This document shows positions 9,371-51,425 of a DNA stretch of 64,000 nucleotides, in pieces. A model generated the notes under the pieces. The model worked only from the letters and a program-made list of their open reading frames with translations, was not told the DNA's origin and did not search any database. How positions within the stretch are numbered: position 1 is the first letter of the stretch; the number at the start of each line of letters is the position of its first letter. This DNA comes from Dictyostelium discoideum (lineage: Eukaryota): contig CM000152.2 in NCBI GenBank assembly GCA_000004695.1, positions 1,760,001 to 1,824,000 on the forward strand. The letters run 5' to 3'. The position numbers and the translations under genes are program-made.

Positions 9371-9430
<60 letters not shown>

Positions 9431-9707: not shown

Positions 9708-9738
<31 letters not shown>

Positions 9739-10354: not shown

Positions 10355-10420
<66 letters not shown>

Positions 10421-10657: not shown

Positions 10658-10751
<94 letters not shown>

Positions 10752-11917: not shown

Positions 11918-12306
11918 CTATTTATTTATTTTAGGGGTTTTTTCAATATATTCTTGATAAGTTTGAGTTGGTATAATTTCTTTGGATAGTTCATCCAAAC
12001 ATTGCACCATATAGTCAAAAACTGATTGATTCCAATCTTGCTGGCCTTTAATATGCAACTGATTTTTTGATACATCTGTTGAGTTGAATCCCAAACATAC
12101 CAACTCTATATTTTCTTTGATATAACCTTTTTTATTGTCAAGTCTATTCAATGACATTTGGAAAACACGTTCATCATTATCAATTTCACGGCTGTACAAC
12201 ATTATAATACCACTAAGATTACATTTACCTCTTTGAATTTTAATATCGTCGTCATCAATAATTTCTTGACTTTTTATTAATGAAAGTGTTGAAGAAAATA
12301 ATGAAG

Positions 12307-12386
<80 letters not shown>

Positions 12387-13593: not shown

Positions 13594-13667
13594 TGTGCCT
13601 GAAGGGTTTCGATCCCATGACCTATTGATTCGAAGTCAATCGCTCTTCCGAACTGAGCTACAAGCAC
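13594..13667 (-). tRNA. tRNA-Arg, anticodon TCG (UCG), 74 nt including discriminator
   Basis: Minus strand reads GTGCTTG TA GCTC AGTTCGGAA GAGC G ATTGA CTTCGAA TCAAT AGGTC ATGGG ATCGAAA CCCTT CAGGCAC A. Acceptor stem has 7 bp including one G-U; D stem GCTC/GAGC; anticodon stem ATTGA/TCAAT with U33 and A37; anticodon UCG. T arm has one T-T mismatch and an A54-type loop (ATCGAAA), so a tRNAscan score is needed. It is supported as a real pol III gene by DGLT-A-like and TRE5-A insertions at the family-typical distances upstream (15 and 47 bp). Confidence 0.6.
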
Positions 13668-13682
13668 CTTGGCTTCATGGTG

Positions 13683-13945
13683 TGTAATAAAGCTTGTTAG
13701 CTTTATAAATATATAATTAATAATTATATAATTGAATAATACTTTGTTATCTTTATTTAATATTAGTTTATATTTATAATATTCAATATTGTTTATAAAA
13801 TTATTCTTTAGTATTTATATTATTCATAATGAGTTGACAGTATTATTATTATTATTATTATATTATTTAAATGTGTGTCAACTATAATTAGTAATGTAAT
13901 ATGCATATTTAATATCTATTAATTTTATAGAGTAACTTTATTACA
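13683..13945 (-). repeat. 3' LTR of the DGLT-A-like element (263 bp)
   Basis: Identical to 16071..16333 and terminates TGTAAT.../...ATTACA. The element ORF stop codon TAA is formed by LTR bases 13941-13943 (TG-TAA-T). Confidence 0.85.
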
Positions 13946-14542
13946 TATCCCCCCCTTTTAGTTGAAAAAAATTTTTCAATCTTTTAATATAAAACACATC
14001 ATGATTTTTAATATTATCCAATACTAATTTGAATTTTAAATCGCTAACTCTCTCATGTACTTTGAAAAGACCTTCCCAAGATTTATTGAGCTTTACTGGA
14101 CCAACAGTGGATTGTAAATAGACATAATCTCCTACTTGAATATTTGAACGAGAAACTTTTTTATTAATTTGTGATAATTGGTCTTTACCAAGATTATCCT
14201 TAATGAGACAAGGACGTTTGAGGTTATTATTAACAATTTGAGCGAAATTATGAGCAAAATCTAATCTTGATAAATTTGTACATGGATTTCTTATTAATGG
14301 TTGAATTGAGGTTATTTGTGATTTAATTATTGAATTCTCTGTTTGATTTAATGATATTGATTTTAATGGTAAATTTGATGTTATTGGTGAATCTATTGGT
14401 TCTTGGAATAAGAATTCTGGAATATCGTAATCTATTGGTAGTTGTTCTTCAATAGTTGGATACGATTTGATTGATAGTATATGATGAGAATTAAAATTTT
14501 CAATTAAATGATCAGTATCTGTTAATAATTCTGATTTTGATG

Positions 14543-14594
<52 letters not shown>

Positions 14595-15869
14595 TGAATA
14601 ATCAGATACTGTTTTAAATATAGTTTGTATACATGGTTGGGTTTCTTTAGATATTAATTTGGTACCAACATTGAATTCAAGATTCTTAATGATCATTTCT
14701 TTAAAATCAATGACTAAATTTAATCCAATTATTGTATCAATGCCAAATATACAATCAATTGATGTATCATTATCTTTAACAACATTAACTTTAACTCTAG
14801 CGAATGCTTTACCTAATTTAATTGTTGTGTTACTTATTCCAATGATTTCGATTTGATTATTTGATGCTGATTTAACAGAATATTGTTTATTTTCAATCTT
14901 TAATTTTAACTTTTTAGCAATACTTTCCCAAACAATAGTAAGTGATGAACCAGTATCAATCAAACCTCTAACATTTTTATTATTTATTAATAAAGCTGCA
15001 TTCATACTATCTATTCCAATTGAATTAATTGTACTATTATTGACCATTGTAATTGAATTAGTTCTATTATTGTAATTGTTATTATTATTTTTATCTTTTG
15101 ACCAACACTCTTGAATTACATGACCTTTCTTTTTGCAATATTTACAAAATTTTGTGATTGAATTTACTTGATTTTGTGGTGCTTTATAAGGGGATGATTG
15201 TGGTGACATTTGTGGTGATCGATTATAATATTGATTTTTAAAAATTGGTGTTGAAATTTCTTCAGATTCAATTGATTGTTGTTCGTTTTGAGATGTAACA
15301 TATTGAGGGGATGTTGCAGAATAACCCGAACCCGAACCTAGATATCTTTGATTACCAAATTCTTGCAACGTCTTTGCAACTAATTGACCAGTGTACATTG
15401 ATCTACCTTTGATACGAATTGAACCATCTTCACAAGACTTTGCAATATCTATTGCTCTTTTTAATGATTTTGGTGCACATTTTGTAATTTTAATACCCAA
15501 TTCAGTACCAACAGCTGAATAAAACAATTGTATTTTAAACTTTTCTGAAATATCAACTGCTGAACATTTTGATAGAAATTTACCAATTAATATATCTAAT
15601 GTATTGTATTTATATTCTCCCAACTTTGTTAATTCTGTTAAATCATCACTATCACCAATATCAAAAGCATCTTTAAGATCTTCAATTATCTCCATTGCTG
15701 TTAAGTCTGTATCCAATGTTGCGGCATATTCCAATGCATTGTTTCTTAGTTTTCTAATAATATCAGCTTTCGATATTTCCTCGCCATGAATTAATAAGAG
15801 TAAGTGTTTGAATTTACGAAATGATAAACCTTTTCCATCACCCGAAAAAATTACGTTTTCATTATTACT

Positions 15870-15872
<3 letters not shown>
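13941..15872 (-). CDS. retrotransposon polyprotein remnant (643 aa): Gag-CCHC + aspartic protease fused in frame to integrase C-terminal domain; RT/RNase H/integrase core deleted
   Basis: Continuous ORF from ATG (15872) to a TAA supplied by the 3' LTR. Motifs are listed under the element feature. It reads through the polypurine tract as K-G-G. Confidence 0.8.
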
Positions 15873-15956
<84 letters not shown>

Positions 15957-16070
15957 TATTAAATTAAATTTAATCTAATGTAAAATTTTAATTGATTGAA
16001 TAATTTGATAACTTTATATTTATAGTATATTTTTTTTTTTTTTTTTTTTTTGAAAGACGATGTCGCCAAA

Positions 16071-16333
16071 TGTAATAAAGCTTGTTAGCTTTATAAATAT
16101 ATAATTAATAATTATATAATTGAATAATACTTTGTTATCTTTATTTAATATTAGTTTATATTTATAATATTCAATATTGTTTATAAAATTATTCTTTAGT
16201 ATTTATATTATTCATAATGAGTTGACAGTATTATTATTATTATTATTATATTATTTAAATGTGTGTCAACTATAATTAGTAATGTAATATGCATATTTAA
16301 TATCTATTAATTTTATAGAGTAACTTTATTACA
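16071..16333 (-). repeat. 5' LTR of the DGLT-A-like element (263 bp)
   Basis: Identical copy of 13683..13945. Followed on the minus strand by TT + TGGCGACATCGTC (PBS-like) and a poly(A) stretch before the Gag ATG at 15872. Confidence 0.85.
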
Positions 16334-16369
16334 GGTGTAATGAACGTCGTATTCCAATTCCTATGAAAT

Positions 16370-17255
16370 TAAGTGTGGACACACCACTCACACCTGGAAT
16401 GTGAAGATTTTAAACCATCTACAAATTGCACTAGTAGCCAATTTAATAGCTATTATATTCGAAAAAATTTGGCACAAAAGAAACAAACTCATTCACGATG
16501 AAAAAGAAATAATAATTCACAGACAACAAGTAATACGTGAACTAATTAAAACACAAAGAGCTGCATGGGACAGGACACAAGCGGTTATAAACAAAACATT
16601 AAGAATCAAATCAAAGCAACGGCCAGAAGAACAAAATAAACTAGACTCACTAATCTCGCTAAAGCTATTACAATTTAGCAGACAATGGAACTCACCTCTT
16701 CACGCAATAGAACTTCCTAAACATCTCAAAAAATACAATAATTCACTCAGTACTTTCTATAAATAAATAAAAAAAAAAAAAAAAAAATAAAAAAATAAAA
16801 AAAAAAAAAAAAAAAACTTGGGAACCCAAGTTAATCAGAAAATTTCCAGATTTTTAACTTTTTAAAGAAAAATAAAAAAAATAGAAAGAAAATAAAATGA
16901 AAATCACAAACAACACCACAAATATTAAGCAACACAAATGCCTACAAAAAATAAGCGAAATTGTGGATAAAACTCAATTAAAAAAAAAACAATTCAAATA
17001 CGTCATAAACATCAATCACGAACCAGACGATAAAATAAAAAAAGATATAGAAAAAAGTTTGGACAAAAAAGATGTTTTAATCAAAAGTAATAATATAATT
17101 CAAAATTCGAAACAAAAAAAAAAAAAAAAAAAAAAAAAAAGGTAAACCAACCCCTCTTTTAGAGACCCTGTAAAAAAAAAAAAATAAAATAAAATGAGAT
17201 CTAGCATCTCAAGGAGAAGCAAATAATAATTGCGTTATCCAATTCAAAAAAAAAA
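16370..17255 (+). mobile_element. 5'-truncated TRE5-A (DRE) copy: ORF2 3' end (16370..16766), B-module with ORF1-start duplicate (16897..17145), C-module, oligo(A) 17246..17255; flanked by 15-bp TSD CAATTCCTATGAAAT (16355..16369 and 17256..17270)
   Basis: ORF 16401..16766 is about 99 percent identical to the C-terminus of the 772-aa ORF2 at 39975..42293. 16897..17145 matches 39583..39831 (MKITNNTTNIKQHKC...). The C-module segment aaatgagatctagcatctcaaggagaagcaaataataattgcgttatccaattc matches the 3' end of the full copy. Removing the DGLT-like element and one GGTG places the truncated 5' end 47 bp upstream of tRNA-Arg, the canonical TRE5-A position. Confidence 0.75.
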
Positions 17256-17670
17256 CAATTCCTATGAAATACTTTTGATAATTTGTATATACCTTATATA
17301 CTTGTGTTACCCTTGAACACAGAGAAATAATTAATAATAAATAATAAATAATAAATAATATTATATCTCTTATATAATATTATATGTAATAAAGTATAAG
17401 TTTTGTTTATGCACAATTTGGAATAAAACAACAATGAATTAATTTTTATTTTATTTACTATTTATACTAAAATTAATTTTACTAAAGAAACCGTTGGTTA
17501 AATTTCTGAGAATAAAGTAAGAATCTTGTATTTGACGTCTTTTCAGTAACAGATCTATTTCTATATTTGTATTTTACCAAGGATAAAAACTTTATATGTT
17601 AATTTATGTCGCTTAATTATTCGCGATTATTACACAAGTAAAGGACCTCGTATTTGGACTTCTATGAAAT

Positions 17671-37886: not shown

Positions 37887-38899
37887 ATGAGTAGAAGATC
37901 ACAACCACAACAAAATTCTCAATCACAAAGACCACAACCACCTTCACAATCAAGGAGTAATAATAATAGTAATAATAATTATAATAATAGATATGAACCA
38001 ACAGATGGTGATGATGATGAAATTGAATATAATGCACAACATAGATTATTATTAGATCAATTTACAAAACGTAGAATTATTAGTACAGAAACATTAAAGA
38101 AACTAGTGATGACAGTTAATAGAATAACACAAGTAAACATTTCATTAGATGATTATATCAATTCATTAAATTCAAAAATTATGGAAGTTGGCTTACAAAT
38201 TAAAATTTTAAATACTGATGGTATAAATGATTATATTTTAACAAATCTCAAACCAGATGAATGTGCAAGATATGCTACTCATTATTCTGGTGATGAATTG
38301 AAATTCTTTAAATTAATTGTAAAATTTTTCATTATTAATTAATAATATAATAATAATAAATAATAATAAATAATAATAATAATAATAATATTAATTAAAA
38401 ATATAATCTATATTTGAATTTAAAATTTAGTTAAAAATGTTTATAGAATCAAGAGTTGGATTAAAAAAAAATGATATTTTAACATTAGGTAGAGATGAGC
38501 TTAAAATTAAATTGTCAGATGCAGATAATTTGTTTAGAAAATTTGCAGAGGATGGTTGGTTAAGATTATCAGCATCCAAATCATTCACAACATTAACAAA
38601 TAGAGCTTTATCAGATATGGCACCATTACTTGATGGTATTCCAAACTGTGCATTATGTCATACAATTTGTGTTTTATTAGAAGTAAGTATTGATTATATC
38701 TATACTATAAAATTTTTTTTTTTAAAAATAATTTATTAATTTTTTTTTTTTTTTTTGTTTTTTAATTTTTTCCCTTTAGGATGAAAGTGTTCAATGTCCA
38801 AATGAAGATTGTGCTGTAATGCACTCTCATTGTGCAGAAGGATGGTTTAAAGCAAATAAAAATAAATGTCCATCTTGTTCGACAAGAATGGATTTTTAA
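37887..38899 (+). CDS. nse1: Nse1 (non-SMC element 1 of the SMC5/6 complex) with C-terminal RING-like zinc finger; exons join(37887..38318,38431..38682,38780..38899), 267 aa
   Basis: The C-terminus GIPNCALCHTICVLLEDESVQCPNEDCAVMHSHCAEGWFKANKNKCPSCSTRMDF matches the NSMCE1 RING-like signature (C.IC......C..C....H..C...WF......CP.C). The middle region DADNLFRKFAEDGWL matches the Nse1 winged helix (EAEQVLQKFVQNKWL). Donors GTAAAA (38319) and GTAAGT (38683); acceptors AAAATTTAG (38429-38430) and CCCTTTAG (38778-38779); all phase 0. Length is close to human NSMCE1 (266 aa). Confidence 0.75.
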
Positions 38900-39446
38900 A
38901 AATGTAATTTCTTTCTTTTTAAAAATGTAATTTTTTTTTAATTTTAATTAATAATTGTGTTGCCTTTGGGTTATGTTAAATGATGGAATGAAAAGGAAAT
39001 TATCACCATTTTGGATCTTTCGACTTTCTTAATGAATGGTCAAAAATTGAGTCCAATTTATTTTGAAATTTCAAAGTTTATTAATAATCAACTCTATGAT
39101 AACAATCGGTGATGTAAGGACTGGCATTCTGGTTAATGGTAGTTATATGAACACCTTTCTCTCCAAGAATTCATCGAAAAAAAAATAAAAGATATTAAAT
39201 GAATTAAAATATCATTTTCTAGTTTTTTTTTTCTTTTTTTTTTTTTTTATTATTATTATAATTAATATTTTGTGTGTTTGTTTTTATATTCTGGTCAAAA
39301 TAGTAGGATGGTGTATATAGTAATCACCCTTAAAGATACTCAAAATAGAGAAATGAAATTTAAATTTCATGAAACTTTTTTAAATTTTCATTACAATATT
39401 AGGATTCGAAACTTTTTCTCTGGAATTATCTAAATCTTTTTTTATT

Positions 39447-39461
39447 TTATCGTCGGATTGG
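39447..39461. repeat. 15-bp target-site-duplication copy ATTGGTGATTAATCT (3' flank of the first TRE5-A)
   Basis: Identical 15-mer also at 45334..45348 and 47950..47964, i.e. at all three element/flank boundaries of the tandem pair. Confidence 0.7.
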
Positions 39462-39907
39462 TGATTAATCTTTTTTTTTTTTGAATTGGATAACGCAATT
39501 ATTATTTGCTTCTCCTTGAGATGCTAGATCTCATTTTATTTTATTTTTTTTTTTTTTTTTTACAGGGTCTCTAAAAGAGGGGTTAGTTTACTTTTTTTTT
39601 TTTTTTTTTTTTTTGTTTCGAATTTTGAATTGTATTATTACTTTTGATTAAAACATCTTTTTTGTCCAAACTTTTTTCTAAATCTTTTTTTATTTTATCG
39701 TCTGGTTCGTGATTGATGTTTATGACGTATTTGAATTGTTTTTTTTTTAATTGAGTTTTATCCACAATTTCGCTTATTTTTTGTAGGCATTTGTGTTGCT
39801 TAATATTTGTGGGGTTGTTTGTGATTTTCATTTTATTTTCTTTCTATTTTTTATATTTTTCTTTAAAAAGTTAAAAATCTGGAAATTTTCTGATTAACTT
39901 GGGTTCC

Positions 39908-39974
<67 letters not shown>

Positions 39975-42293
39975 TTATTTATAGAAAGTACTGAGTGAAT
40001 TATTGTATTTTTTGAGATGTTTAGGAAGTTCTATTGCGTGAAGAGGTGAGTTCCATTGTCTGCTAAATTGTAATAGCTTTAGCGAGATTAGTGAGTCTAA
40101 TTTATTTTGTTCTTCTGGCCGTTGCTTTGATTTGATTCTTAATGTTTTGTTTATAACCGCTTGTGTCCTGTCCCATGCAGCTCTTTGTGTTTTAATTAGT
40201 TCACGTATGACTTGTTGTCTGTGAATTATTATTTCTTTTTCATCGTGAATGAGTTTATTTCTTTTGTGCCAGATTTTATCGAATATAATAGCTATTAAAT
40301 TGGCTACTAGTGCAATTTGTAGATGGTTTAAAATCTTCACATTCCAGGTGTGAGTGGTGTGTCCACACTTAGTTAGGGTGTAGTTGAAGATTTCTTGTGT
40401 GTTTTTGATGTGGGCTTTGCAGTTGAAGAATATATGTTCTGAGGTCTCATCTTCCCCACACTGTTGGCATGGCATGTTGTATATTTTTGGTAGTGCTTTC
40501 AGTGTGTATCTCCATAATAGATCTCTACCTTTCATGTTTATTATTTTTTTGATTTCTTTAAATGGAAGGTGTTTGCTATTAATTTTGGTCATTATTTCTT
40601 TTTGGCCAGGAGTTGGTATGAATTTGTTGTGTTCAGGAGATTGAGTTGTCATCATATCCTCGTATATTTTTTTTAATTTTGGGAGGTGTTCGTAGTGTGT
40701 TTGTTTATTTTGTGGAGTTTTTAATTGGGTCCATGCTTGCTTGCATTGCCAGTGTAGTTGTAGTTGATTTTGTTTTGTTGTTGTTTTGTTGTTGTTGTTG
40801 TTTTTGAGTTCCTCTTCCCACAGTTTTATATATGAACTAGGAGTGTTACTTACTCTTTGGTGGAGGTATCTTTCGAATAACCATGCTTTCTGTGCTAGTT
40901 CTCTTGTCTTCAGGTTCCATAAGTTTAGGCCACCATTGATATAGTTGTTTTGTCTTCTTTGTAGTGAAAGAGAGTTTTTAGATTTTGTGTTGAAAACGAA
41001 TTTTACGATGTTATTTTCAATACTATTGTGTTGTGGTGTGGTGTTGATGTAAGTGTGGAACGTTAACTGAGATAGTGCATATGTTTTTGCCATTATGAGT
41101 CTGCCCATATAGGTTGATGAAGTTGAGTTCCATGTTACTAGTTTAGCTCTGATGTTGTCTGAGATTGTATTGATTTTGGATTTGATACCCTTATTGTTGA
41201 AGTCAAAGCCGAGGTACCTTTCGTTTGATTTTATGACGGTGTATAGCGTTCTGGTGTTCCATTTGAAAGTGATACACGAGCATTTGGTTTGGTTTATTTT
41301 TGCGCTGGTTGCTTGGCAAAACTTCTTGATCCATTCATTCATGAGGAAATGGTCCATAAAGTTGTATGCTATTGTTGCTGTATCATCGGCGAACTGTAGT
41401 ATTTTAATGGTTTCTTTGGTTACACCATTGATGCAGCGGTCATTTATTATAGTAGTTGCCATGCATTCAACCACTAATGCGAAGATAGTGGGAGAGATAG
41501 GATCCCCTTGTTTGGTTCCTCTTTTTGATGTAAAGCTTTTAGATAATGAGTTATTGATGTACCCTGATGTTTCTGATTCATTGAGTAAGTTCATTATTGT
41601 GAGGACCATTTTGAGTGGTAGTTTTAGATGTGCAAGAGTACGTAGAATGGCGTTATGTGAGATTGAATCGAATGCTTTTTCAAAATCATAAAATGTTATG
41701 ATTGGTTCCATATCCTCTTTTGTGTTAATCTCTCGTTTTATTATTTCTATTGTTGAGTTTAAGGTGATGATGTTATCGTGCAGTAGTCTTCTTGGTACGA
41801 ATCCAGTTTGGAATGGTGAGATTATTTTGTTTAAGAACTTCAGGATCCTATTGTTGATTATTTTCGAATAGATTTTGTAATCGACATTTAGAAGTGTTAT
41901 TGGTCTATAGTTATCCAGGTTGTTTGGGTCTCCTTTGTTTTTATATATAGTAATCAATATCCCTTGTTTGAAGTCCTTTGGGATTGTTGTGTTCCAGAAG
42001 TGATTGTATAGTTTTGATATTATTGGTAGAATTTCATTAATGTGGTTTTTGTAAAATGTTGGAAGGAGTCCATCTTTACCAGGTGCTTTTCCTTCTTGTA
42101 TTTTTTCAATGCCTAGTCTGATTTCGTATTCTTCTATTGGTTGATTAATTTCGTCCAATATCTTTTGATCAATCCTTTTATTGAATGTTTTTAGGAGTTC
42201 GTGGTGAGTGTCTTCGTTGCATTCTCTCTTCTGGTACAGGTTCTCGTAATATCTTCTTGCTACTTCGAGGATATCCTCGTTTTTTGTTACCAA
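39975..42293 (-). CDS. TRE5-A ORF2 reverse-transcriptase and C-terminal segment (772 aa as listed; in frame with 42351..43196)
   Basis: RT motifs are present (...ISPFQTGFVPRRLLHDNI..., QFADDTATIA). The C-terminal 120 aa are duplicated almost exactly in the truncated copy at 16401..16766. Confidence 0.85.
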   Translation of the reverse strand: MVTKNEDILEVARRYYENLYQKRECNEDTHHELLKTFNKRIDQKILDEINQPIEEYEIRLGIEKIQEGKAPGKDGLLPTFYKNHINEILPIISKLYNHFWNTTIPKDFKQGILITIYKNKGDPNNLDNYRPITLLNVDYKIYSKIINNRILKFLNKIISPFQTGFVPRRLLHDNIITLNSTIEIIKREINTKEDMEPIITFYDFEKAFDSISHNAILRTLAHLKLPLKMVLTIMNLLNESETSGYINNSLSKSFTSKRGTKQGDPISPTIFALVVECMATTIINDRCINGVTKETIKILQFADDTATIAYNFMDHFLMNEWIKKFCQATSAKINQTKCSCITFKWNTRTLYTVIKSNERYLGFDFNNKGIKSKINTISDNIRAKLVTWNSTSSTYMGRLIMAKTYALSQLTFHTYINTTPQHNSIENNIVKFVFNTKSKNSLSLQRRQNNYINGGLNLWNLKTRELAQKAWLFERYLHQRVSNTPSSYIKLWEEELKNNNNNKTTTKQNQLQLHWQCKQAWTQLKTPQNKQTHYEHLPKLKKIYEDMMTTQSPEHNKFIPTPGQKEIMTKINSKHLPFKEIKKIINMKGRDLLWRYTLKALPKIYNMPCQQCGEDETSEHIFFNCKAHIKNTQEIFNYTLTKCGHTTHTWNVKILNHLQIALVANLIAIIFDKIWHKRNKLIHDEKEIIIHRQQVIRELIKTQRAAWDRTQAVINKTLRIKSKQRPEEQNKLDSLISLKLLQFSRQWNSPLHAIELPKHLKKYNNSLSTFYK

Positions 42294-42350
42294 ACAATTG
42301 TTGCTTGGATCTAGAATTTGAGGGATTTCATTTGTCTTTCTTTGGACTTT

Positions 42351-43196
42351 TCACCTTCTGGTTAAGTATTTTGATGGTGTTTCTTTGTTGTTGATGTGGG
42401 TGTTGGTTTGGTTTGCTTGTTTTATTCTTACTTGTTCCTTTAGAATATTGTTGATCTCTTCTTTAAGGAAGATTGCTCTTGAATCTTTGGCTGTTTCGAG
42501 TTTTTCTGCGAGTTCTTTTAGTTTGTTTTTGGTTTTATTGCTTTCTCTAATTTCTATATTAATTGACAGTTTCTTTATTTCATCTTTTAGTTTCAACCAT
42601 TGTTCGCAAATGTTTAATTTGTACCATTTGCTGGTGTTCTCTTCGAATTTTTTATTGTAGTATTTAATTGTTTTATTAATTTTGAGGCTGGTTGAATTCA
42701 TTTTGAGAGTTTCTAGGTTTTGTCTCCATAGTCTTTCTCCTTTCTTTTGTTGCTCGTATTCTGGTATTTTTAATTCAATGATTACCATGTTGTGATCAGA
42801 TTTTAATTTGATTTCCTTAGTAGTAACTATTGGGTTTAGATGGAGTATCTTCTTTGAGACAAAGACCCTATCGATGGTTGATTTGTTTCTTGGAAATGTG
42901 ATTCCATTCTTAATTTCTGTAAATTCGAATTCGTCGAAGATTGTTTTAATATATTTGTTAAGGTTATTATCCACTGAACAGTCTACATTGAAGTCTCCAG
43001 TTATAATATCGCTGTGTAGTATTTCTTCTGTGAGATTTTCCTTATACCATTCATGTCTTTCGTTTGACTTTGCTGGGGCATAAATGGTTGTGCATTTGAT
43101 CTGTGTTTTTGCAATCATCCATTCGGAAGATATAATTCTTTCGTTTATTGTTTTTGTTGTTGTTTTTATTTGGGTGTTGATGATGATTTGTGACAC
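42351..43196 (-). CDS. TRE5-A ORF2 N-terminal segment (apurinic/apyrimidinic-endonuclease-like domain), terminated by an in-frame TGA at 42353..42351
   Basis: 281-aa ORF ...DHNMVIIELK... ending ...ETPSKYLTRR*. The same reading frame continues after the TGA for 19 codons (KVQRKTNEIPQILDPSNNC) into the 772-aa RT ORF, so ORF2 is interrupted by a single nonsense codon, not a frameshift. Confidence 0.75.
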   Translation of the reverse strand: MSQIIINTQIKTTTKTINERIISSEWMIAKTQIKCTTIYAPAKSNERHEWYKENLTEEILHSDIITGDFNVDCSVDNNLNKYIKTIFDEFEFTEIKNGITFPRNKSTIDRVFVSKKILHLNPIVTTKEIKLKSDHNMVIIELKIPEYEQQKKGERLWRQNLETLKMNSTSLKINKTIKYYNKKFEENTSKWYKLNICEQWLKLKDEIKKLSINIEIRESNKTKNKLKELAEKLETAKDSRAIFLKEEINNILKEQVRIKQANQTNTHINNKETPSKYLTRR

Positions 43197-43408
43197 CCCT
43201 TGTCCTGTTTTATCAATTGGTGCGTGGTGTGTTATTTTGTTTTTATATTGTTGATTTATTGAGTAAATTTTATTTGTTTTTATATTTGTTTCAGTTAGAA
43301 GTGCTGCGTCCAGCTTGTTGTTGTCTAATACGGTGTTTATTATGCTGGCAGATTGGATGGTGTTGGATCCTTGGACGTTCCAAACACCTATTCTTATTGT
43401 GTTTTTCT

Positions 43409-44743
43409 TTATAGTTTTATTTGGGGTAGATTTTTATCTACCTTTTGAAGTTTCTGGTTTATTTTGTCTTCTAACTGATCTTTACTTTGTTCGTTGTGTT
43501 GTTGGTCTTGTGTGTTTGTGGGGTTTTTTGATTTACTGATTTGTTTTAGAATTTCCTTGTTGAAGTTGTCTATATCTTCATCCATTTTTGTTTTTATGCT
43601 TTTTTGTCCATATTCACCCAATTTTGGTTTGACTGGTGTTTTGTTGGTCCTGTTTGTTTTGTCTTGTTGTTTGTTTTTTGGTGTGTTTAACAATTTACTT
43701 GGTGAATCGATAATTTTCGATGGTGTACCATAGGTTGGGCTGAAACTCATGATATGTTTTATTGGAGAGGAGAAGAACCATTGATTTGAAGGGATTGAAA
43801 GTGGGAATTCTATTTTTCTTATTGCATCAGTGTTTGGGCTGGTGAAGTCGAAGATATCATTTACCTCTCTAAGTTTTTCTTCCGTTGTTAGTCTCTTTGT
43901 TTCGCCGTGTTGTTTTATTGGTGTATTGTATGGAGATGGTGGTTCAATAGGTTTTTCTGATTTTGTTTTAATTTCTTGATTGTTTATCGATTGGGTATTG
44001 ATCTCATTCTCTATTCTTGTTAGTTCATCTACGTTTTCTAGTGATGCATCTATTACCTTTTGAGCTGTATCATCTAGGGCCATAAATGTTTTATCATTAG
44101 ATGAGGAGGTGATTGGTGGGATAATGATTGTTCTTTTTCCTTGTTTTGGTATTTGTTCTGATGTAGATTGTGGTTGTTGTTCATCTGATTGTTTTTTATT
44201 TTTGTTTTCTTCTTGATTTTCTGGTAATGAGGTTTGATCTCTCCATCCTTTGTTGGAGTGACCAATTAATGTTAGATTGTCTAGTTCAATGATAGTGTCA
44301 TATTCTTCTACGACTCTTTTCACTGTTTTGATAATTAGAGTTTCGCCTTTAATTTCAGATTTAATTAGTTTACATCCTTCATTTTCTATTACCCATTCTA
44401 TTTCTGTGAGTGATTTATACCAATCGAAATCCGTATACATATTTTTTGGTCTTAGAGTGGTTATAAATTGTCCTTTTAATTCTGCATCGAACATATTTAC
44501 AAAATAGATTACTGTACTAATACTGTCTGTGAGAATTTTGAATGTATTATTACTTTTGATTAAAACATCTTTTTTGTCCAAACTTTTTTCTAAATCTTTT
44601 TTTATTTTATCGTCTGGTTCGTGATTGATGTTTATGACGTATTTGAATTGTTTTTTTTTTAATTGAGTTTTATCCACAATTTCGCTTATTTTTTGTAGGC
44701 ATTTGTGTTGCTTAATATTTGTGGTGTTGTTTGTGATTTTCAT
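43409..44743 (-). CDS. TRE5-A ORF1 protein (444 aa)
   Basis: Long ORF MKITNNTTNIKQHKCLQKISEIVDKTQLKKKQFKYVININHEPDDKIKKDLEKSL.... It is 98-99 percent identical to the second copy at 46047..47381, and its N-terminus is duplicated in the 3' B-modules. Confidence 0.85.
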   Translation of the reverse strand: MKITNNTTNIKQHKCLQKISEIVDKTQLKKKQFKYVININHEPDDKIKKDLEKSLDKKDVLIKSNNTFKILTDSISTVIYFVNMFDAELKGQFITTLRPKNMYTDFDWYKSLTEIEWVIENEGCKLIKSEIKGETLIIKTVKRVVEEYDTIIELDNLTLIGHSNKGWRDQTSLPENQEENKNKKQSDEQQPQSTSEQIPKQGKRTIIIPPITSSSNDKTFMALDDTAQKVIDASLENVDELTRIENEINTQSINNQEIKTKSEKPIEPPSPYNTPIKQHGETKRLTTEEKLREVNDIFDFTSPNTDAIRKIEFPLSIPSNQWFFSSPIKHIMSFSPTYGTPSKIIDSPSKLLNTPKNKQQDKTNRTNKTPVKPKLGEYGQKSIKTKMDEDIDNFNKEILKQISKSKNPTNTQDQQHNEQSKDQLEDKINQKLQKVDKNLPQIKL

Positions 44744-44819
44744 TTTATTTTCTTTCTATCTTTTATATTTTTCTTTAAAAAGTTAAAAATCTGGAAATTT
44801 TCTGATTAACTTGGGTTCC

Positions 44820-44862
<43 letters not shown>

Positions 44863-44865
<3 letters not shown>

Positions 44866-45332
44866 TCTTTTTTATATGAAAAATGAAATAATCAAAAAAA
44901 GAGATTGTTGTTGTTGTTTGTTTTTTTTCGATCTGATTATTTTTTGCTTTTTTTTGAAAATTTTGCTACGCAAAATTCTCAAAACGAAACAAATAATAAA
45001 TTACAATAAAGTAAAAAGATGGCTTTTTAAGATAGTTTATTTATTTATTTATTTGTTTTTTAAGTCTTTTTTATATGAAAAATGAAATAATCAAAAAAAG
45101 AGATTGTTGTTGTTGTTTGTTTTTTTTCGATCTGATTATTTTTTGCTTTTTTTTGAAAATTTTGCTACGCAAAATTCTCAAAACGAAACAAATAATAAAT
45201 TACAATAAAGTAAAAAGATGGCTTTTTAAGATAGTTTATTTATTTATTTATTTGTTTTTTAAGTCTTTTTTATATGAAAAATGAAATAATCAAAAAAAGA
45301 GATTGTTGTTGTTGTTTGTTTTTTTTCGATCT
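44863..45332 (-). repeat. TRE5-A A-module tandem array: 199-bp unit x ~2.4 at the 5' end of the first TRE5-A copy
   Basis: Units start at 44863, 45062 and 45261 (aagtcttttttatatgaaaaatgaaataatcaaaaaaagagattgttgttgttgtttg...). The last unit is truncated at CGATCT where it meets the target-site copy at 45333. Confidence 0.7.
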
Positions 45333-45333
45333 C

Positions 45334-45348
45334 ATTGGTGATTAATCT
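45334..45348. repeat. 15-bp copy ATTGGTGATTAATCT at the junction between the first TRE5-A 5' end and the second copy's oligo(A)
   Basis: See 39447..39461. Confidence 0.7.
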
Positions 45349-45689
45349 TTTTTTTTTTTTTTTTTTTTTTTTTTGAATTGGATAACGCAATTATTATTTG
45401 CTTCTCCTTGAGATGCTAGATCTCATTTTATTTTTTTTTTTTTTTTACAGGGTCTTTTTGATTAAAACATCTTTTTTGTCCAAACTTTTTTCTAAATCTT
45501 TTTTTATTTTATCGTCTGGTTCGTGATTGATGTTTATGACGTATTTGAATTGTTTTTTTTTTTTTAATTGAGTTTTATCCACAATTTCGCTTATTTTTTG
45601 TAGGCATTTGTGTTGCTTAATATTTGTGGTGTTGTTTGTGATTTTCATTTTATTTTCTTTCTATCTTTTTTATTTTTCTGATTAACTTG

Positions 45690-45750
<61 letters not shown>

Positions 45751-46046
45751 TTATAGAAAGTACTGAGTGAATTATTGTATTTTTTGAGATGTTTAGGAAG
45801 TTCTATTGCGGGTGTTGATGATGATTTGTGACACCCCTTGTCCTGTTTTATCAATTGGTGCGTGGTGTGTTATTTTGTTTTTATATTGTTGATTTATTGA
45901 GTAAATTTTATTTGTTTTTATATTTGTTTCAGTTAGAAGTGCTGCGTCCAGCTTGTTGTTGTCTAAAACGGTGTTTATTATGCTGGCAGATTGGATGGTG
46001 TTGGATCCTTGGACGTTCCAAACACCTATTCTTATTGTGTTTTTCT

Positions 46047-47381
46047 TTATAGTTTTATTTGGGGTAGATTTTTATCTACCTTTTGAAGTTTCTGGTTTAT
46101 TTTGTCTTCTAACTGATCTTTACTTTGTTCGTTGTGTTGTTGGTCTTGTGTGTTTGTGGGGTTTTTTGATTTATTGATTTGTTTTAGAATTTCCTTGTTG
46201 AAGTTGTCTATATCTTCATCCATTTTTGTTTTTATGCTTTTTTGTCCATATTCACCCAATTTTGGTTTGACTGGTGTTTTGTTGGTCTTGTTTGTTTTGT
46301 CTTGTTGTTTCTTTTTTGGTGTGTTTAACAATTTACTTGGTGAATCGATAATTTTCGATGGTGTACCATAAGTTGGGCTGAAACTCATGATATGTTTTAT
46401 TGGAGAGGAGAAGAACCATTGATTTGAAGGGATTGAAAGTGGGAATTCTATTTTTCTTATTGCATCAGTGTTTGGGCTGGTGAAGTCGAAGATATCATTT
46501 GCCTCTCTAAGTTTTTCTTCCGTTGTTAGTCCCTTTGTTTCGCCGTGTTGTTTTATTGGTGTATTGTATGGAGATGGTGGTTCAATAGGTTTTTCTGATT
46601 TTGTTTTAATTTCTTGATTGTTTATCGATTGTGTATTGATCTCATTCTCTATTCTTGTTAGTTCATCTACGTTTTCTAGTGATGCTTCTATTACCTTTTG
46701 AGCTGTATCATCTAGGGCCATAAATGTTTTATCATTAGATGAGGATGTGATTGGTGGGATAATGATTGTTCTTTTTCCTTGTTTTGGTATTTGTTCTGAT
46801 GTAGATTGTGGTTGTTGTTCATCTGATTGTTTTTTATTTTTGTTTTCTTCTTGATTTTCTGGTAATGAGGTTTGATCTCTCCATCCTTTGTTGGAGTGTC
46901 CAATTAATGTTAGATTGTCTAGTTCAATGATAGTGTCAAATTCTTCTACGACTCTTTTCACTGTTTTGATAATTAGAGTTTCGCCTTTAATTTCTGATTT
47001 AATTAGTTTACATCCTTCATTTTCTATTACCCATTCTATTTCTGTGAGTGATTTATACCAATCAAAATCTGTATACATATTTTTTGGTCTTATAGTGGTT
47101 ATAAATTGTCCTTTTAATTCTGCATCAAACATATTTACAAAATAGATTACTGTACTAATACTGTCTGTGAGAATTTTGAATGTATTATTACTTTTGATTA
47201 AAACATCTTTTTTGTCCAAACTTTTTTCTAAATCTTTTTTTATTTTATCGTCTGGTTCGTGATTGATGTTTATGACGTATTTGAATTGTTTTTTTTTTAA
47301 TTGAGTTTTATCCACAATTTCGCTTATTTTTTGTAGGCATTTGTGTTGCTTAATATTTGTGGTGTTGTTTGTGATTTTCAT
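46047..47381 (-). CDS. TRE5-A ORF1 protein (444 aa), second copy
   Basis: Near-identical to 43409..44743, with a few substitutions (for example RPKNMYT/IRPKNMYT, EEYD/EEFD). Confidence 0.85.
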   Translation of the reverse strand: MKITNNTTNIKQHKCLQKISEIVDKTQLKKKQFKYVININHEPDDKIKKDLEKSLDKKDVLIKSNNTFKILTDSISTVIYFVNMFDAELKGQFITTIRPKNMYTDFDWYKSLTEIEWVIENEGCKLIKSEIKGETLIIKTVKRVVEEFDTIIELDNLTLIGHSNKGWRDQTSLPENQEENKNKKQSDEQQPQSTSEQIPKQGKRTIIIPPITSSSNDKTFMALDDTAQKVIEASLENVDELTRIENEINTQSINNQEIKTKSEKPIEPPSPYNTPIKQHGETKGLTTEEKLREANDIFDFTSPNTDAIRKIEFPLSIPSNQWFFSSPIKHIMSFSPTYGTPSKIIDSPSKLLNTPKKKQQDKTNKTNKTPVKPKLGEYGQKSIKTKMDEDIDNFNKEILKQINKSKNPTNTQDQQHNEQSKDQLEDKINQKLQKVDKNLPQIKL

Positions 47382-47457
47382 TTTATTTTCTTTCTATTTT
47401 TTTTATTTTTCTTTAAAAAGTTAAAAATCTGGAAATTTTCTAATTAACTTGGGTTCC

Positions 47458-47500
<43 letters not shown>

Positions 47501-47503
<3 letters not shown>

Positions 47504-47949
47504 TCTTTTTTATATGAAAAATGAAATAATCAAAAAAAGAGATTGTTGTTGTTGTTTGTTTTTTTCGATCTGATTATTTTTTGCTTTTTTTTTGAAAATT
47601 TTGCTACGCAAAATTCTCAAAACGAAACAAATAATAAATTACAATAAAGTAAAAAGATGGCTTTTTAAAATAGTTTATTTATTTATTTATTTGTTTTTTA
47701 AGTCTTTTTTATATGAAAAATGAAATAATCAAAAAAAGAGATTGTTGTTGTTGTTTGTTTTTTTCGATCTGATTATTTTTTGCTTTTTTTTTGAAAATTT
47801 TGCTACGCAAAATTCTCAAAACGAAACAAATAATAAATTACAATAAAGTAAAAAGATGGCTTTTTAAAATAGTTTATTTATTTATTTATTTGTTTTTTAA
47901 GTCTTTTTTATATGAAAAATGAAATAATCAAAAAAAGAGATTGTTGTTG
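47501..47949 (-). repeat. TRE5-A A-module tandem array (199-bp unit x ~2.3) at the 5' end of the second copy
   Basis: Units start at 47501, 47700 and 47899. The last unit is truncated at GAGATTGTTGTTG where it meets the flank copy at 47950. Confidence 0.7.
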
Positions 47950-47964
47950 ATTGGTGATTAATCT
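47950..47964. repeat. 15-bp copy ATTGGTGATTAATCT at the 5' boundary of the second TRE5-A, 31 nt upstream of tRNA-Val
   Basis: See 39447..39461. This copy lies in native tRNA-upstream context. Confidence 0.7.
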
Positions 47965-47995
47965 TAATGACATTCATAACAAAAAAATCATGTTT

Positions 47996-48069
47996 GGTTT
48001 GATGGTGTAGTTGGTTATCACGGTTGCTTTACACGCAACAGGTCTCGAGTTCGATCCTCGGTCGGATCA
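47996..48069 (+). tRNA. tRNA-Val, anticodon TAC (UAC), 74 nt including discriminator; T5 terminator at 48075..48079
   Basis: GGTTTGA TG GTGT AGTTGGTTA TCAC G GTTGC TTTACAC GCAAC AGGTC TCGAG TTCGATC CTCGG TCGGATC A. The anticodon arm GCTTTACACGC is the tRNA-Val(TAC) signature; T loop is TTCGATC; acceptor stem has 3 G-U pairs; followed by atatattttt. The TRE5-A pair ends 46 bp upstream, the canonical integration distance. Confidence 0.85.
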
Positions 48070-48394
48070 TATATTTTTAAAATTTTACGGAAAATACTAA
48101 TTAAACTTTCCTTTAAAGGATAAGCTATGATTAATCATTATTAAAAACTAAATAAACAATAAGCAAAAAGTAATCAACCTTGCATTAAAAAAAAAAATTT
48201 TTTTTTTTTTTTTTTTTTTTGTAATTATAAATCCCCGACATTCAATTTCCCATGGCCAGATGGTGTAGTCCCTTATAACACTATCACAAACAGAATTACA
48301 CATATAATCCCACGAAACATCAAAAAGGATCATAAGGTTAACATAGACTACGTAAATCTTCCAAGTTTTATTACCAAAATCCACATAGAAATCA

Positions 48395-48658
48395 TCAAAC
48401 TCCTGTTTTATTTAGTAGGCTTTGAATTGGTAGTATATCTCTAGATAATTCATCTAAACATTCTATCATATAATTAAATACCATAGGATTCCAATCCTGT
48501 TGACCTTTACTATAGAGTTGATTCCTTGATAAATCCATTGAATTAAAGCCAAGGCATACCAATTCATTATTTTTGATATACCCCTTGCTATTGTTGATTC
48601 TATTAAGAGACATTTTAAATACACGATCTTCTTTTTTAATATTTTTTTTGACCAACAT
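48395..48658 (-). CDS. 87-aa ORF paralogous to the C-terminal domain of the 11918..12463 ORF (about 55 percent aa identity); possibly a gene fragment
   Basis: MLVKKNIKKEDRVFKMSLNRINNSKGYIKNNELVCLGFNSMDLSRNQLYSKGQQDWNPMVFNYMIECLDELSRDILPIQSLLNKTGV* versus ...MLYSREIDNDERVFQMSLNRLDNKKGYIKENIELVCLGFNSTDVSKNQLHIKGQQDWNQSVFDYMVQCLDELSKEIIPTQTYQ.... Stop codons lie immediately upstream and there is no acceptor, so it is stand-alone as written. Confidence 0.4.
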   Translation of the reverse strand: MLVKKNIKKEDRVFKMSLNRINNSKGYIKNNELVCLGFNSMDLSRNQLYSKGQQDWNPMVFNYMIECLDELSRDILPIQSLLNKTGV

Positions 48659-48896
48659 TATTTATTTAGCGAATTTTTCATTTTGCTATGACATTATATT
48701 TAAAAAATAAAAATAAAATAATAAAAAAAAAAAATTAAATAATTATTTTCATTTGATTTTACATTTTAAATATTGTTCAGGGCAGATTTTTTCCAATTTC
48801 TTACTACACCATTTTATTTTTTCAAATAATAAATTCCCAAAAATTAATTAATTAAAACAAACATAAATTTATTTTTAAAAAATTATTATATTAGTT

Positions 48897-48935
<39 letters not shown>

Positions 48936-48943
48936 AATTGGAA

Positions 48944-48979
<36 letters not shown>

Positions 48980-49064
48980 ACTTAACCGAAATCTTTTTCG
49001 TTTTTCATTTTTTTTTTTTTTTTTTATCCATTTTTTTTTTTTTTTAATATATCCAAACCAATAA

Positions 49065-51425
49065 ATGAGTAATAATATAAAGTTTTTACAATGTTTTAAA
49101 TTTGTCAAAAATTTAAATTTAATAAATAATGTGAAACCAAGTTATAATATCAATAAAAACCAATTTAAAACTACACCAATACCCACAATTAAAACTTTAT
49201 CAACAAATATCAATATTTTAAATAATTTTGAATTTGAGAAAAATGAAAATATAAAATTTTTTTCAACATTTAATAAATTTAGTAGAGGTGGTGGTGTTTC
49301 ACTAAAGAAATCTGGAACTACTACTAATAATAATAAAACAAAAGAATTAACAGAATCAACATCAGATTCAACAAATGAAAATGGATATAAATTTAATTTT
49401 ATAAATCCAGATTCAATTGCACCATTTAAACCAAGACATTTACCATATGAAACTACAACTGATTTAGATTTTTTAGTACCACCAGGGTTAACACCAATTG
49501 AATCAAGTGAAACATTAAATAAATATTTAAAATTGGCAAAAGCATTATCAGCAATTGGTTTTGAACATCAAGAGAATGAAAAATGGGAAGAAGCATTGGA
49601 ATCCTATAATAAAGCATTATTTTATATTAGAAATATATTTGCATCTGAAAAAACTAGAGATAAAATTGATTTACGTGATTTTGCATTGTTATTAAGTAAT
49701 TCAGCAGAATCCTATTCAAGGGTTGATAAAATGACAGATGCAATGACACGTTCAAAACAATCGATTGATTTATTGGAAGTTTATTGGAAAAATCAAGTTT
49801 TACAATTTTCAAGTTCAAAACCATCAATAAGATCAATGTGGAAAAAAGATGAAATGTTGGGAGTTTTTTGTAGTAATTATTCAGAGTATTTAATTTTCGA
49901 TAATAAATTTGAAGAGGCAGAACCATATCTAGTTAGAGCACATGAAATTTTAGAGAAAATTTATCCACTCAATCATCCAGTTAATATTGAAATTGGTATT
50001 TCATTAGTAAAAGTTTTAAATGAAATGGGTAGATCAAAAGAGGTTGAAAAAATCTTTGAAAAGTATGGTGATACAATAACTGATGCAATGGGCAAAACTG
50101 AAGAATTTAAACATATCTCTGAAAAGGTTGAAACTGATATTAAACATCAAATGATTGAACAAATTAAAGATCAATATCCTGAATTAGGTTTAGATCATAA
50201 AGATTTTGAAGATGATGATGGTCAAGAAGATATTGAAAGAGATAAATATTTAGATGATAAAGAAAAACTTAATCAATATATTGAAAATAATAATGGTGAT
50301 TTAATTGAATATGATGAAAATGGTAATTTAACTTTTAAAAATAATAAAAATAGAAAAGATGATCAAGATGATGATGAAGATAATAATATAAAAGTAAAAT
50401 CAAAATATAGTGAATTAGAATTTGATATAAATGATTTATTATTATTAGAACAAGATAAAATTGAATCAAAGCAACAAGAAATGGAAATAAGAAAACAAAA
50501 AAGAAATAATGGTGAATTATTATTAGATCAAGAAGATGATGATAATGATGAAGATTTACAATTTAAAGAAAGAGATTTTGATGAATTAAATAATGAAGAT
50601 GATGATGACGATTTTGATTTAGATTTTGGTGATGAAGGTGATGAAGATGAAGGTGATCGTGAAGATTTAGGTAGAGAAGAAATTCATCCAAGAGAAGAGA
50701 TGTTAAATATAAAATTAGAACAAGATGAAGATTTAATGAAACAAAAAGGTATTAAAGTATTTTCAACACGTAAACCATTGGGAAATGTTTTAAATGAATT
50801 TGATTCACTATTTGATGAAGCCACTGAAAAGTATACAGAAATTCAAAATGAGAGAGTCATTGATCGTGAAGAACGTTTAATTAATAAACATTCAGGTATA
50901 CCAGAGAAAGTAATCTATAAAGATGGTAAAATCATTACACCAACCGATAAACACGGTGAACCAATTTCACAAGGTGCCATTGATAAATGGGGTAAATTCT
51001 ATGCTGAGGATTTAATTCAAGAAGATATCAATGAGGAGGAGGATGTATTAAATGATTACATTGGTAAAATGGGTAATCTAATGGAATCAATGTCAAAAAA
51101 AGAGTCAAATCAATTGGATAAAGAATTTAAATTAATGTATCCAAAATTTAAAAAATTATTATCTCAACCAAATCCTGAAAGATATTTAAATACTTCATTA
51201 ATGGATGTTGAAGAGGATGAAAAACAAAGAAAAGAATTAATAATTCAAGAAATTAAAGAAATTAAACAATATTTACAAGAATTAAAAGATGAAGGTTATG
51301 ATGATAATGGTATTAATGATGAATCAATTGACGATGATGATGATAATTCTTTTTTAGAAAATGATTATGATTTTATTAATGAAGAAAATGATGATAAAGA
51401 AATAAATAATAATAAAAATATTATT

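Follow-up and report, generated by a model that had tools for sequence, protein, structure and literature searches.

A tandem of TRE5-A.1 and TRE5-A.2 upstream of a tRNA-Val(UAC) gene of Dictyostelium discoideum, with the same 15-bp duplication at all three boundaries

The TRE5-A elements of Dictyostelium discoideum insert upstream of tRNA genes under the guidance of the RNA polymerase III (Pol III) machinery. According to the literature, the A and B boxes inside the tRNA gene are bound by TFIIIC, which sets TFIIIB just upstream; the TRE5-A ORF1 protein binds TFIIIB subunits, and the endonuclease and reverse transcriptase of ORF2 insert the element so that its 5' end points toward the tRNA. 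Among 1003 events, 80% of insertions lie 47 ± 3 bp upstream of the tRNA gene (PMC5391098); an interval of 44–54 bp upstream, in opposite orientation, has also been reported (PMC5911963), and the target-site duplication (TSD) is variable in length, from 10 to 16 bp (PMC9012585). At a tRNA gene that is already occupied, a newly arriving TRE usually gives rise to a tandem, and de novo TRE5-A(bsr) insertions reached 91 of 98 occupied tRNA genes, often at exactly the same position (PMC5391098). At LysCUU-2, for example, TRE5-A(bsr) came to adjoin the endogenous TRE5-A.1 (Spaller et al. 2017, PMC5391098), and Nanopore reads place a new copy beside an existing TRE5-A.2 (PMC9012585). Here we describe a natural tandem of this kind in a 64,000-nt stretch of D. 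discoideum DNA (hereafter the window).

Architecture of the tRNA-Val(UAC) locus

The 15-mer ATTGGTGATTAATCT occurs three times on the + strand of the window, each time exactly and each time at an element boundary, as the original prediction had proposed. The sole further match at ≤2 mismatches is an unrelated two-mismatch site at 4433; shuffled sequence gave 0.75 matches at this threshold, and four were reached in 0 of 100 shuffles. The structure can be read directly from the window and comprises the following features, where el1 and el2 denote the two elements.

39378..39456, - strand: left portion of an older, B-module-like relic of TRE5-A (alignment to B-modules)
39457..39471, unstranded: TSD, distal copy; exact 15-mer, then poly(T)
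39472..45333, - strand: el1, full-length TRE5-A.1, 5862 nt (layout, module comparison)
39472–39482, - strand: el1 poly(A), 11 nt
about 39483–39623, - strand: el1 C-module
39624–39923, - strand: el1 3' B-module, 300 nt
39975–43412, - strand: el1 ORF2 frame, with RVT_1 domain
42351..42353, - strand: in-frame TGA in el1 ORF2, in the window only; the second assembly reads TTA (Leu)
43409–44743, - strand: el1 ORF1
44536–44835, - strand: el1 5' B-module, 300 nt
44837–45333, - strand: el1 A-modules, 2.5 copies of a 199-nt repeat
45334..45348, unstranded: TSD, middle copy, el1/el2 junction; exact 15-mer, then poly(T)
45349..47949, - strand: el2, non-autonomous TRE5-A.2, 2601 nt (layout, deletions, subfamily sites)
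45349–45374, - strand: el2 poly(A), 26 nt
about 45375–45455, - strand: el2 shortened C-module
from 45456, - strand: el2 3' B-module
45810, - strand: el2 deletion junction, equivalent to the join of el1 40038 and 43172; 3133 bp of ORF2 missing
46047–47381, - strand: el2 ORF1
47174–47473, - strand: el2 5' B-module
47475–47949, - strand: el2 A-modules, about 2.4 copies
47950..47964, unstranded: TSD, tRNA-proximal copy; exact 15-mer with the A-module end adjoining
47965..47994, unstranded: 30-nt spacer between TSD and tRNA; its first 7 nt (taatgac) extend the B-module-like relic
47995..48070 (start 47995/47996), + strand: tRNA-Val(UAC) gene, the Pol III-transcribed target; el2 lies upstream in opposite orientation

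A-modules end at the two right 15-mers, and poly(T) comes after the two left ones, so both elements lie on the minus strand with their 5' A-modules facing the tRNA gene, the orientation given in the original prediction. Each element is complete for its own subfamily and carries the exact 15-bp duplication on both sides. Together they form a TRE-TRE tandem in which the orientation is the same, the first element is uninterrupted and the 15-mer is all that separates el1 from el2. The tRNA gene (anticodon TAC in DNA) starts 30 nt past the proximal 15-mer, and the 5' end of el2 (47949, minus strand) lies 45–46 bp upstream of this start (plus strand); the distance, the opposite orientation and the 15-bp TSD fit the published TRE5-A ranges. 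The original prediction recognized el1 as near-full-length, although its coordinates (39462..45332) and those of the distal 15-mer (about 39447–39461) were displaced, the latter by about 10 nt; its description of el2 as an internally deleted TRE5-A at 45349..47949 agrees with our annotation.

The layout of el1, A-B-ORF1-ORF2-B-C-oligo(A), is the modular layout of TRE5-A (PMC5391098, PMC5911963), and its two B-modules are 98–99% identical to each other. ORF2 occupies the -1 frame with respect to ORF1; open from 43412, it overlaps the ORF1 stop codon at 43409–43411. In the second assembly (L002, see below) ORF2 is intact, encoding 1047 aa, and this version gave the RVT_1 match in Pfam (E=2.5e-33). 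No Pfam endonuclease family matched ORF2 at E≤0.01, and ORF1 matched no Pfam family, in line with the literature. The name TRE5-A rests on the layout, the position, the Dictyostelium discoideum label of related records, and an ORF1 without a Pfam family. By eye, the N-terminal translation of ORF2 (IGVWNVQG, LLTETN, GDFNVD, SDHNMV) resembles the AP-endonuclease fold.

The same dimer was observed in a second assembly, GCA_054883475.1 (CM142509.1), which is possibly not fully independent of the source genome of the window, with the same order, junctions, and three 15-mers. Window positions 38000–49500 align with it end to end at 99.4%, and the two assemblies differ mostly in homopolymer lengths. 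All 11 base substitutions between them (11/11) fall inside el1 or el2 and none in the approximately 3 kb of unique flank, indicating that at least one assembly has consensus noise in the repeats. The presence of the same dimer in both means that it is not a single-assembly artefact, which speaks against the assembly error that the original prediction had named as a possible refutation. Other alleles were sought through the right-hand neighbour protein (976 aa) by exact look-up and homology; neither an empty allele nor an el1-only intermediate was found, and the only other genomes with the syntenic interval were L011 and L012, both of which have an inverted tRNA-Val and a spacer that has diverged too far to be used as an empty site.

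Subfamilies of the two elements and origin of the tandem

el2 lacks ORF2 (el1-equivalent 40039–43171) and retains ORF1, the A-, B- and C-modules, and oligo(A). The 2146 nt shared by el1 and el2 show 98.74% identity, and the two ORF1 proteins have different residues at 8 of 444 positions. Where unfiltered BLAST output was dominated by poly(T) and poly(A) matches, as in two comparisons, the analysis relied on the leading high-complexity hits alone. Subfamilies were compared over 1602 nt of B-module plus ORF1, where pairs of TRE5-A.1 copies differ at 2–5 sites, pairs of TRE5-A.2 copies at 0–5, and TRE5-A.1 and TRE5-A.2 copies at 18–25. el1 and el2 differ at 19 of the 1602 sites, the same sites that separate the two subfamilies genome-wide. 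el2 shows 0–5 differences from eight dispersed TRE5-A.2 copies and 18–25 from TRE5-A.1 copies; checked against both lineages, its diagnostic sites agree with TRE5-A.2 and not with el1. At least eight dispersed TRE5-A.2 copies also have in common with el2 the ORF2 deletion, whose breakpoint is found in nine copies, and a deletion of approximately 72 nt at the B/C boundary, and the exact el2 ORF1 protein occurs at no fewer than 11 places in another assembly. Moreover, el2 starts about 20 nt deeper into the A-module than el1, and its poly(A) tail is 26 nt long vs 11 nt in el1. Judged by these diagnostic sites, shared deletions, ORF1 protein, 5' end, and tail, el2 is a member of the TRE5-A.2 lineage and not a derivative of el1. 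The 1.2% difference between the elements, from which the original prediction hoped to date the events, is a difference between subfamilies; as it reflects subfamily and not age, it is unusable for dating the insertions.

We consider it very probable (roughly 0.93) that the tandem results from two independent, successive events of target-primed reverse transcription at the same tRNA-Val(UAC) gene. In the first, a full-length TRE5-A.1 (el1) would have been inserted through a nick about 30 nt from the tRNA, following ...AATCT on the tRNA-sense strand, where the poly(T) cDNA would be joined directly, and a second nick 15 nt further upstream, yielding the 15-bp TSD. The 45 bp between insertion point and tRNA would have been left unaltered, and the same TFIIIB-defined complex may later have steered a TRE5-A.2 RNA, mobilised in trans by the ORF2 protein of a TRE5-A.1, to the two phosphodiester bonds already used by el1. 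This would have re-duplicated the proximal 15-mer and displaced el1 2.6 kb from the tRNA, with the outcome TSD-el1-TSD-el2-TSD-30 nt-tRNA and the youngest element nearest the tRNA. We infer the nick positions, the role of TFIIIB at this locus and, from the targeting rule, the order of insertion (el1 first). The subfamily sites and shared deletions bear out the proposal, already made from the window alone, that the TSD was duplicated anew when another TRE5-A inserted at exactly the same nucleotides.

Identical 15-mers at three boundaries of two elements in one orientation would also be produced if a single TRE5-A had been duplicated by unequal crossing-over between its 15-bp TSDs, with ORF2 later lost from one copy. 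This route, which the original prediction had offered as its second option, is contradicted by the TRE5-A.2 identity of el2: neither genome-wide subfamily sites (19/1602) nor 3133-bp and approximately 72-nt deletions common to dispersed copies are expected of it, nor are 5' ends about 20 nt apart and tails of 11 vs 26 nt. Furthermore, arrays elsewhere mix differently truncated elements, even from a related non-TRE5-A family, between identical TSDs, and a 15-bp TSD offers homologous recombination very little sequence to act on. We regard such a duplication as highly improbable, and no more credit is due to an assembly artefact in which repeat reads were mis-stacked at one tRNA gene. The confinement of substitutions to el1 and el2 is what noise in repeat consensus would give, but the second assembly agrees in order, junctions, and 15-mers, comparable arrays exist at other loci, and at the middle junction the 15-mer stands between a full A-module 5' end of el1 type and a poly(A) of el2 type, an arrangement that neither collapse nor mis-joining would produce.

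Two further routes, a single insertion of a dimeric read-through transcript from a tandem elsewhere and insertion of el1 after el2 at the distal TSD, are together only marginally less improbable, and both were rejected. Read-through transcription of tandems is conceivable, with no direct evidence for it found here, but a dimer so formed should carry the internal TSD of its donor locus, whereas the middle 15-mer is the local flanking duplication. A late el1 would have inserted 2.6 kb from the tRNA, far beyond the published 23–181 bp (PMC5391098).

A B-module-like relic at the target

A 25-nt perfect match to TRE5-A, ctaaatctttttttattttatcgtc, lies at 39430–39454 and falls inside the B-module, 51–75 nt from the C-module end; the original prediction had noticed it, while placing it at 39419..39445 and at the end of the B-module. 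Positions 39426–39473 match four B-module copies at 88% identity. When the empty site is reconstructed, its alignment to the B-module spans 39378 to 47971, such that the homology crosses the 15-mer and then 7 nt of the tRNA-side flank (47965–47971). The relic scores 93–111 vs 55–60 (sd 8) for shuffles; its homology is clear in a core some 50 nt long (44/50 identical), with the extent past the core uncertain, and a 20-mer of the core is found solely in TRE5-A B-modules and relics. Since it spans the 15-mer into the tRNA-side flank, the relic is part of the pre-insertion target and older than both insertions. The third copy suspected just beyond the distal TSD is thus real as a TRE5-A-derived patch, though one that runs through the 15-mer toward the tRNA. 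The 15-mer, previously taken as native tRNA-Val upstream sequence, is by this homology itself TRE5-A-derived and not purely native flank.

We rejected the relic as a simple 5'-truncated TRE5-A 3' end (B-part, C-module, poly(A)), as only the core of about 50 nt is clearly homologous; the stretch expected to be C-module has no significant similarity to the TRE5-A C-module, the older TRE5-A lineage (L005, L006), or the related-family fragment of L007. A further candidate relic, on the right-hand side of the tRNA (48071–49064), was also discarded, its score of 150 vs 97 (sd 16) for shuffles being not significant; the L012 alignment there represents the promoter-proximal region of the neighbouring gene.

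In D. cf. discoideum (L012), a degraded A/B relic of TRE5-A, containing the same 20-nt core, lies upstream of the syntenic tRNA-Val; relic, tRNA, and downstream flank are inverted as one block with respect to the neighbouring genes. In the window, the 15-bp target may lie inside a much older B-module relic starting about 24 nt from the tRNA. On a tentative and rather unlikely reading, this relic and that of D. cf. discoideum are orthologous; TRE5-A hits on this tRNA gene would then predate the lineage split, with inversion and trimming of the block as a later step, perhaps through inter-element recombination. If this is true, the newest copies would have inserted into the remains of a relative, against the usual no-nesting rule.

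Comparison with other arrays, published tandems and Ty3

A TSD at every boundary is common at other tRNA genes of GCA_054883475.1, where we observed it at a tRNA-Thr, a tRNA-Gly, and one further array. The tRNA-Thr(CGT) array (L003) contains six pieces and seven TSD copies, and the tRNA-Gly(GCC) array (L007) has four TSD copies and includes a member of a related family. As in the window, the same TSD stands at each boundary and the elements share one orientation; unlike the window, with its two essentially full-length elements, these arrays have more pieces, including strongly 5'-truncated fragments.

Published TRE5-A tandems resemble the window in insertion about 46 bp upstream with the 5' end toward the tRNA, a TSD of 10–16 bp, a new copy placed between the tRNA and an uninterrupted resident, re-use of the same position, and mobilisation of TRE5-A.2-type elements in trans. 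The window differs in having a natural, fixed pair of TRE5-A.1 and TRE5-A.2 at Val(UAC) rather than an experimentally tagged copy, which is not a difference in kind. Stacked insertion at one site is ordinary, already documented TRE5-A behaviour that is not special to this locus, and no new principle is added, as experiments have already demonstrated both tandems and integration at the same position (PMC5391098, PMC9012585). A threefold identical TSD follows from the published behaviour and was not found set out explicitly in the accounts of TRE5-A tandems consulted. This locus is a clear natural illustration of the precision with which the Pol III complex fixes the TRE5-A insertion point. With both nicks re-used to the nucleotide, the youngest element comes to lie adjacent to the tRNA, its predecessors being displaced outward, so that arrays would record insertion order, which helps in annotating such loci and reading array histories.

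Outside Dictyostelium, Ty3 of Saccharomyces cerevisiae is comparable in that a Pol III transcription factor (TFIIIB) sets its insertion point within a few nucleotides (PMC5911963). Ty3 differs from TRE5-A in being an LTR element with an integrase, and its insertions lie 1–4 bp from the transcription start.

Architecture of the TRE5-A dimer upstream of tRNA-Val(UAC)

There are exactly three copies of the target site duplication ATTGGTGATTAATCT on the + strand of the window, and a search allowing up to two mismatches returns only one extra, unrelated site. The first and second copies are followed directly by poly(T) and then the reverse-complemented TRE5-A 3' end, while the end of an A-module array immediately precedes the second and third copies; both elements are thus on the minus strand, their 5' ends facing the tRNA. 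The locus contains the following features.

39457-39471, + strand: first copy of the 15-mer
39472-45333, - strand: distal element, a full-length TRE5-A.1 (5862 nt)
39624-39923, - strand: second B-module of the distal element
43412 down to 39975, - strand: its ORF2, open, in the -1 frame
42351-42353, - strand: in-frame TGA in ORF2, the single such stop in the window version
44743..43409, - strand: its ORF1, intact, 444 aa
44536-44835, - strand: its 5' B-module, including the ORF1 start
44837-45333, - strand: its A-modules, 2.5 units with a period of 199 nt
45334-45348, + strand: second copy of the 15-mer
45349-47949, - strand: proximal element, a TRE5-A.2 (2601 nt)
47381..46047, - strand: its ORF1, intact, 444 aa
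47950-47964, + strand: third copy of the 15-mer
47995-48070, + strand: tRNA-Val(TAC), by ARAGORN, 30 nt past the third copy

The structure given in the original prediction stands, with distal-end coordinates that were about 10 nt too low.

The distal element ends in a C-module followed by 11 A residues. In the second assembly, GCA_054883475.1, its TGA codon reads TTA (Leu), giving an intact ORF2 product of 1047 aa in which a reverse transcriptase domain is clearly recognised (RVT_1, E=2.5e-33); Pfam returns no endonuclease domain for the ORF2 product at E<=0.01. If codon 42351-42353 is truly TTA, the distal element is a potentially autonomous copy. The proximal element retains its A-modules, B-module, ORF1, second B-module, a shortened C-module, and 26 A residues, and has lost ORF2 (the equivalent of 40039-43171 in the distal element). 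These layouts agree with published TRE5-A.1 and its non-autonomous derivative TRE5-A.2 (PMC5391098; PMC5911963). The A-module array of the proximal element comprises about 2.4 units; those of other TRE5-A.2 copies in GCA_054883475.1 reach about 21 units (L006, 5627-9909) and about 8.5 units (L001, 8225-9909; L007, 8214-9905), lengths that may reflect genuine expansion or an effect of long-read assembly.

Origin of the dimer

At least 11 places in GCA_054883475.1 encode the exact ORF1 protein of the proximal element, and one of them is the same locus. Because this counterpart aligns end to end with window positions 38000-49500 (99.4%) and carries the same three 15-mers, the dimer is no artefact of a single assembly. 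The two versions differ in homopolymer lengths and by 11 substitutions over 11.5 kb, nine in the distal and two in the proximal element (generally within 39813-46584) and none in the unique flanks, a confinement suggestive of repeat-related consensus noise or gene conversion.

The dimer could in principle have formed by in-place duplication through unequal crossing-over, followed by deletion in one copy. However, across 1602 nt (B-module, ORF1, and the start of ORF2) compared among 13 copies, members of TRE5-A.1 differ from one another at 2-5 positions and those of TRE5-A.2 at 0-5, whereas the two subfamilies differ at 18-25. The two elements of the dimer differ at 19 (1.2%), and since this falls within the range between subfamilies, their divergence represents the gap between two master lineages, not time elapsed at the locus. 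Moreover, both the ORF2 deletion breakpoint of the proximal element and its deletion of about 72 nt at the B/C boundary are common to dispersed TRE5-A.2 copies. The ends differ as well: the distal element has the canonical 5' end GAGATCGAAAA, while the proximal one begins about 20 nt further in, and their poly(A) tails measure 11 and 26 nt, respectively. Together these observations exclude unequal crossing-over. A read-through dimer transcript copied from another locus is likewise excluded, since the internal 15-mer is identical to the duplication that flanks the dimer here. What remains is that target-primed reverse transcription took place twice, as separate events at the same pair of nicks; the subfamily differences, shared deletions, and differing ends support the first of the two options in the original prediction, that a second TRE5-A integrated at exactly the same site.

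Because the poly(T) follows ...AATCT on the + strand without a gap, the first nick would lie some 30 nt from the tRNA, with the second 15 nt further upstream. The first insertion would have left the 45 bp adjoining the tRNA intact, after which only the proximal copy of the duplication would sit at the TFIIIB-set distance; for this reason we infer that the proximal element is the younger.

An older relic at the target and the interval in related genomes

A third, almost completely deleted copy had been suspected just beyond the distal duplication, based on a 25-nt perfect match whose actual position is 39430-39454. The surrounding stretch, 39426-39473, matches an internal part of each of the four B-modules at 88% identity (repeat family D11). 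When the empty site is rebuilt by joining the two flanks through a single 15-mer (...cgtcggATTGGTGATTAATCTtaatgac...), B-module homology runs from about 39378 across the 15-mer (11/15 matches) into taatgac at 47965-47971, scoring 93-111 where shuffled sequence gives 55-60 (sd 8). Across about 300 kb of retrieved sequence, the 20-nt core AAAATAAAAAAAGATTTAGA is found only in TRE5-A B-modules, this patch, and one other relic. As the homology crosses the 15-mer and the core is confined to B-modules and relics, the patch appears to be TRE5-A-derived and to predate both insertions, with the duplicated 15-mer belonging to it. The suspected TRE5-A origin would thus hold; a simple remnant beyond the distal duplication does not, because the homology spans the 15-mer. 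A simple truncated TRE5-A was also rejected, as the core is not followed by anything resembling a C-module.

The TRE5-A dimer is absent from the syntenic interval in two related genomes, D. discoideum (L011; neighbour protein, the right-hand gene product, 92% identical) and D. cf. discoideum (L012; 86%). Both keep the flanking genes; taking the Nse1 gene and the 97x-aa gene as reference, tRNA-Val(UAC) (L011 8108-8181; L012 9391-9466) is on the other strand, and the L012 inversion also takes in the flank downstream of the tRNA. Directly upstream of the L012 tRNA is a degraded TRE5-A A/B relic (score 200; shuffles 107, sd 11), which on these data may or may not be orthologous to the window patch. 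Downstream lie 418-aa and 104-aa ORFs with no Pfam family, whose position suggests a TRE3-type element. In L011, a tandem array of about three units, each roughly 50 nt long, occupies 8182-8330 directly upstream of the tRNA; every unit closes with 14 nt resembling the tRNA's own 5' end (caccatccgacc / caccattcgtcc / cacatccaacc). Only two features of the locus are mildly unusual: the older relic spanning the target site, and the tRNA block being inverted compared with these related genomes.

Stacked insertions at other tRNA genes

Among nine loci retrieved via the TRE5-A.2 ORF1 protein, three further arrays repeat one target site duplication at their boundaries.

L003, tRNA-Thr(CGT): GTTTTGTAATT at seven boundaries of six stacked pieces (3792-13425: TRE5-A.1, TRE5-A.2, a fragment of about 970 nt, and three very short 3'-end fragments)
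L007, tRNA-Gly(GCC): TATATATAATTTT at four boundaries, one piece being from a related family
L008, no tRNA gene detected: CTTCTGTGAAAT at two boundaries seen

The seven boundaries in L003 imply six insertions at one nucleotide position. L007 also has a 5'-truncated element with a aattgcgttattctattc-poly(A) end (12003-12573), flanked on either side by a TRE5-A piece and sharing the duplication of the array. Although related to the 3' end of TRE5-A (score 283; shuffles 109), it is distinct and probably belongs to another TRE5 family.

The window holds another tRNA-targeted pile-up at 13594-17270.

13594-13667, - strand: tRNA-Arg(TCG)
13941..15872, - strand: next after the tRNA, a 643-aa ORF of an LTR-type retroelement remnant, with a CCHC knuckle, an aspartyl protease (E=1e-10), and a weak Tf2-type SH3
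16370-17255, + strand: 5'-truncated TRE5-A with its own 15-bp duplication CAATTCCTATGAAAT (16355-16369 and 17256-17270)

The TRE5-A fragment would be the older of the two retroelements, with the LTR element apparently entering later on its tRNA side.

[quoted passage not shown] Target site duplications measure 10-16 bp, and nanopore reads have captured a new copy adjoining a resident TRE5-A.2 (PMC9012585). Because similar arrays recur at other loci and both tandem and same-position integration are published, the dimer is a clean natural example of an already known behaviour.
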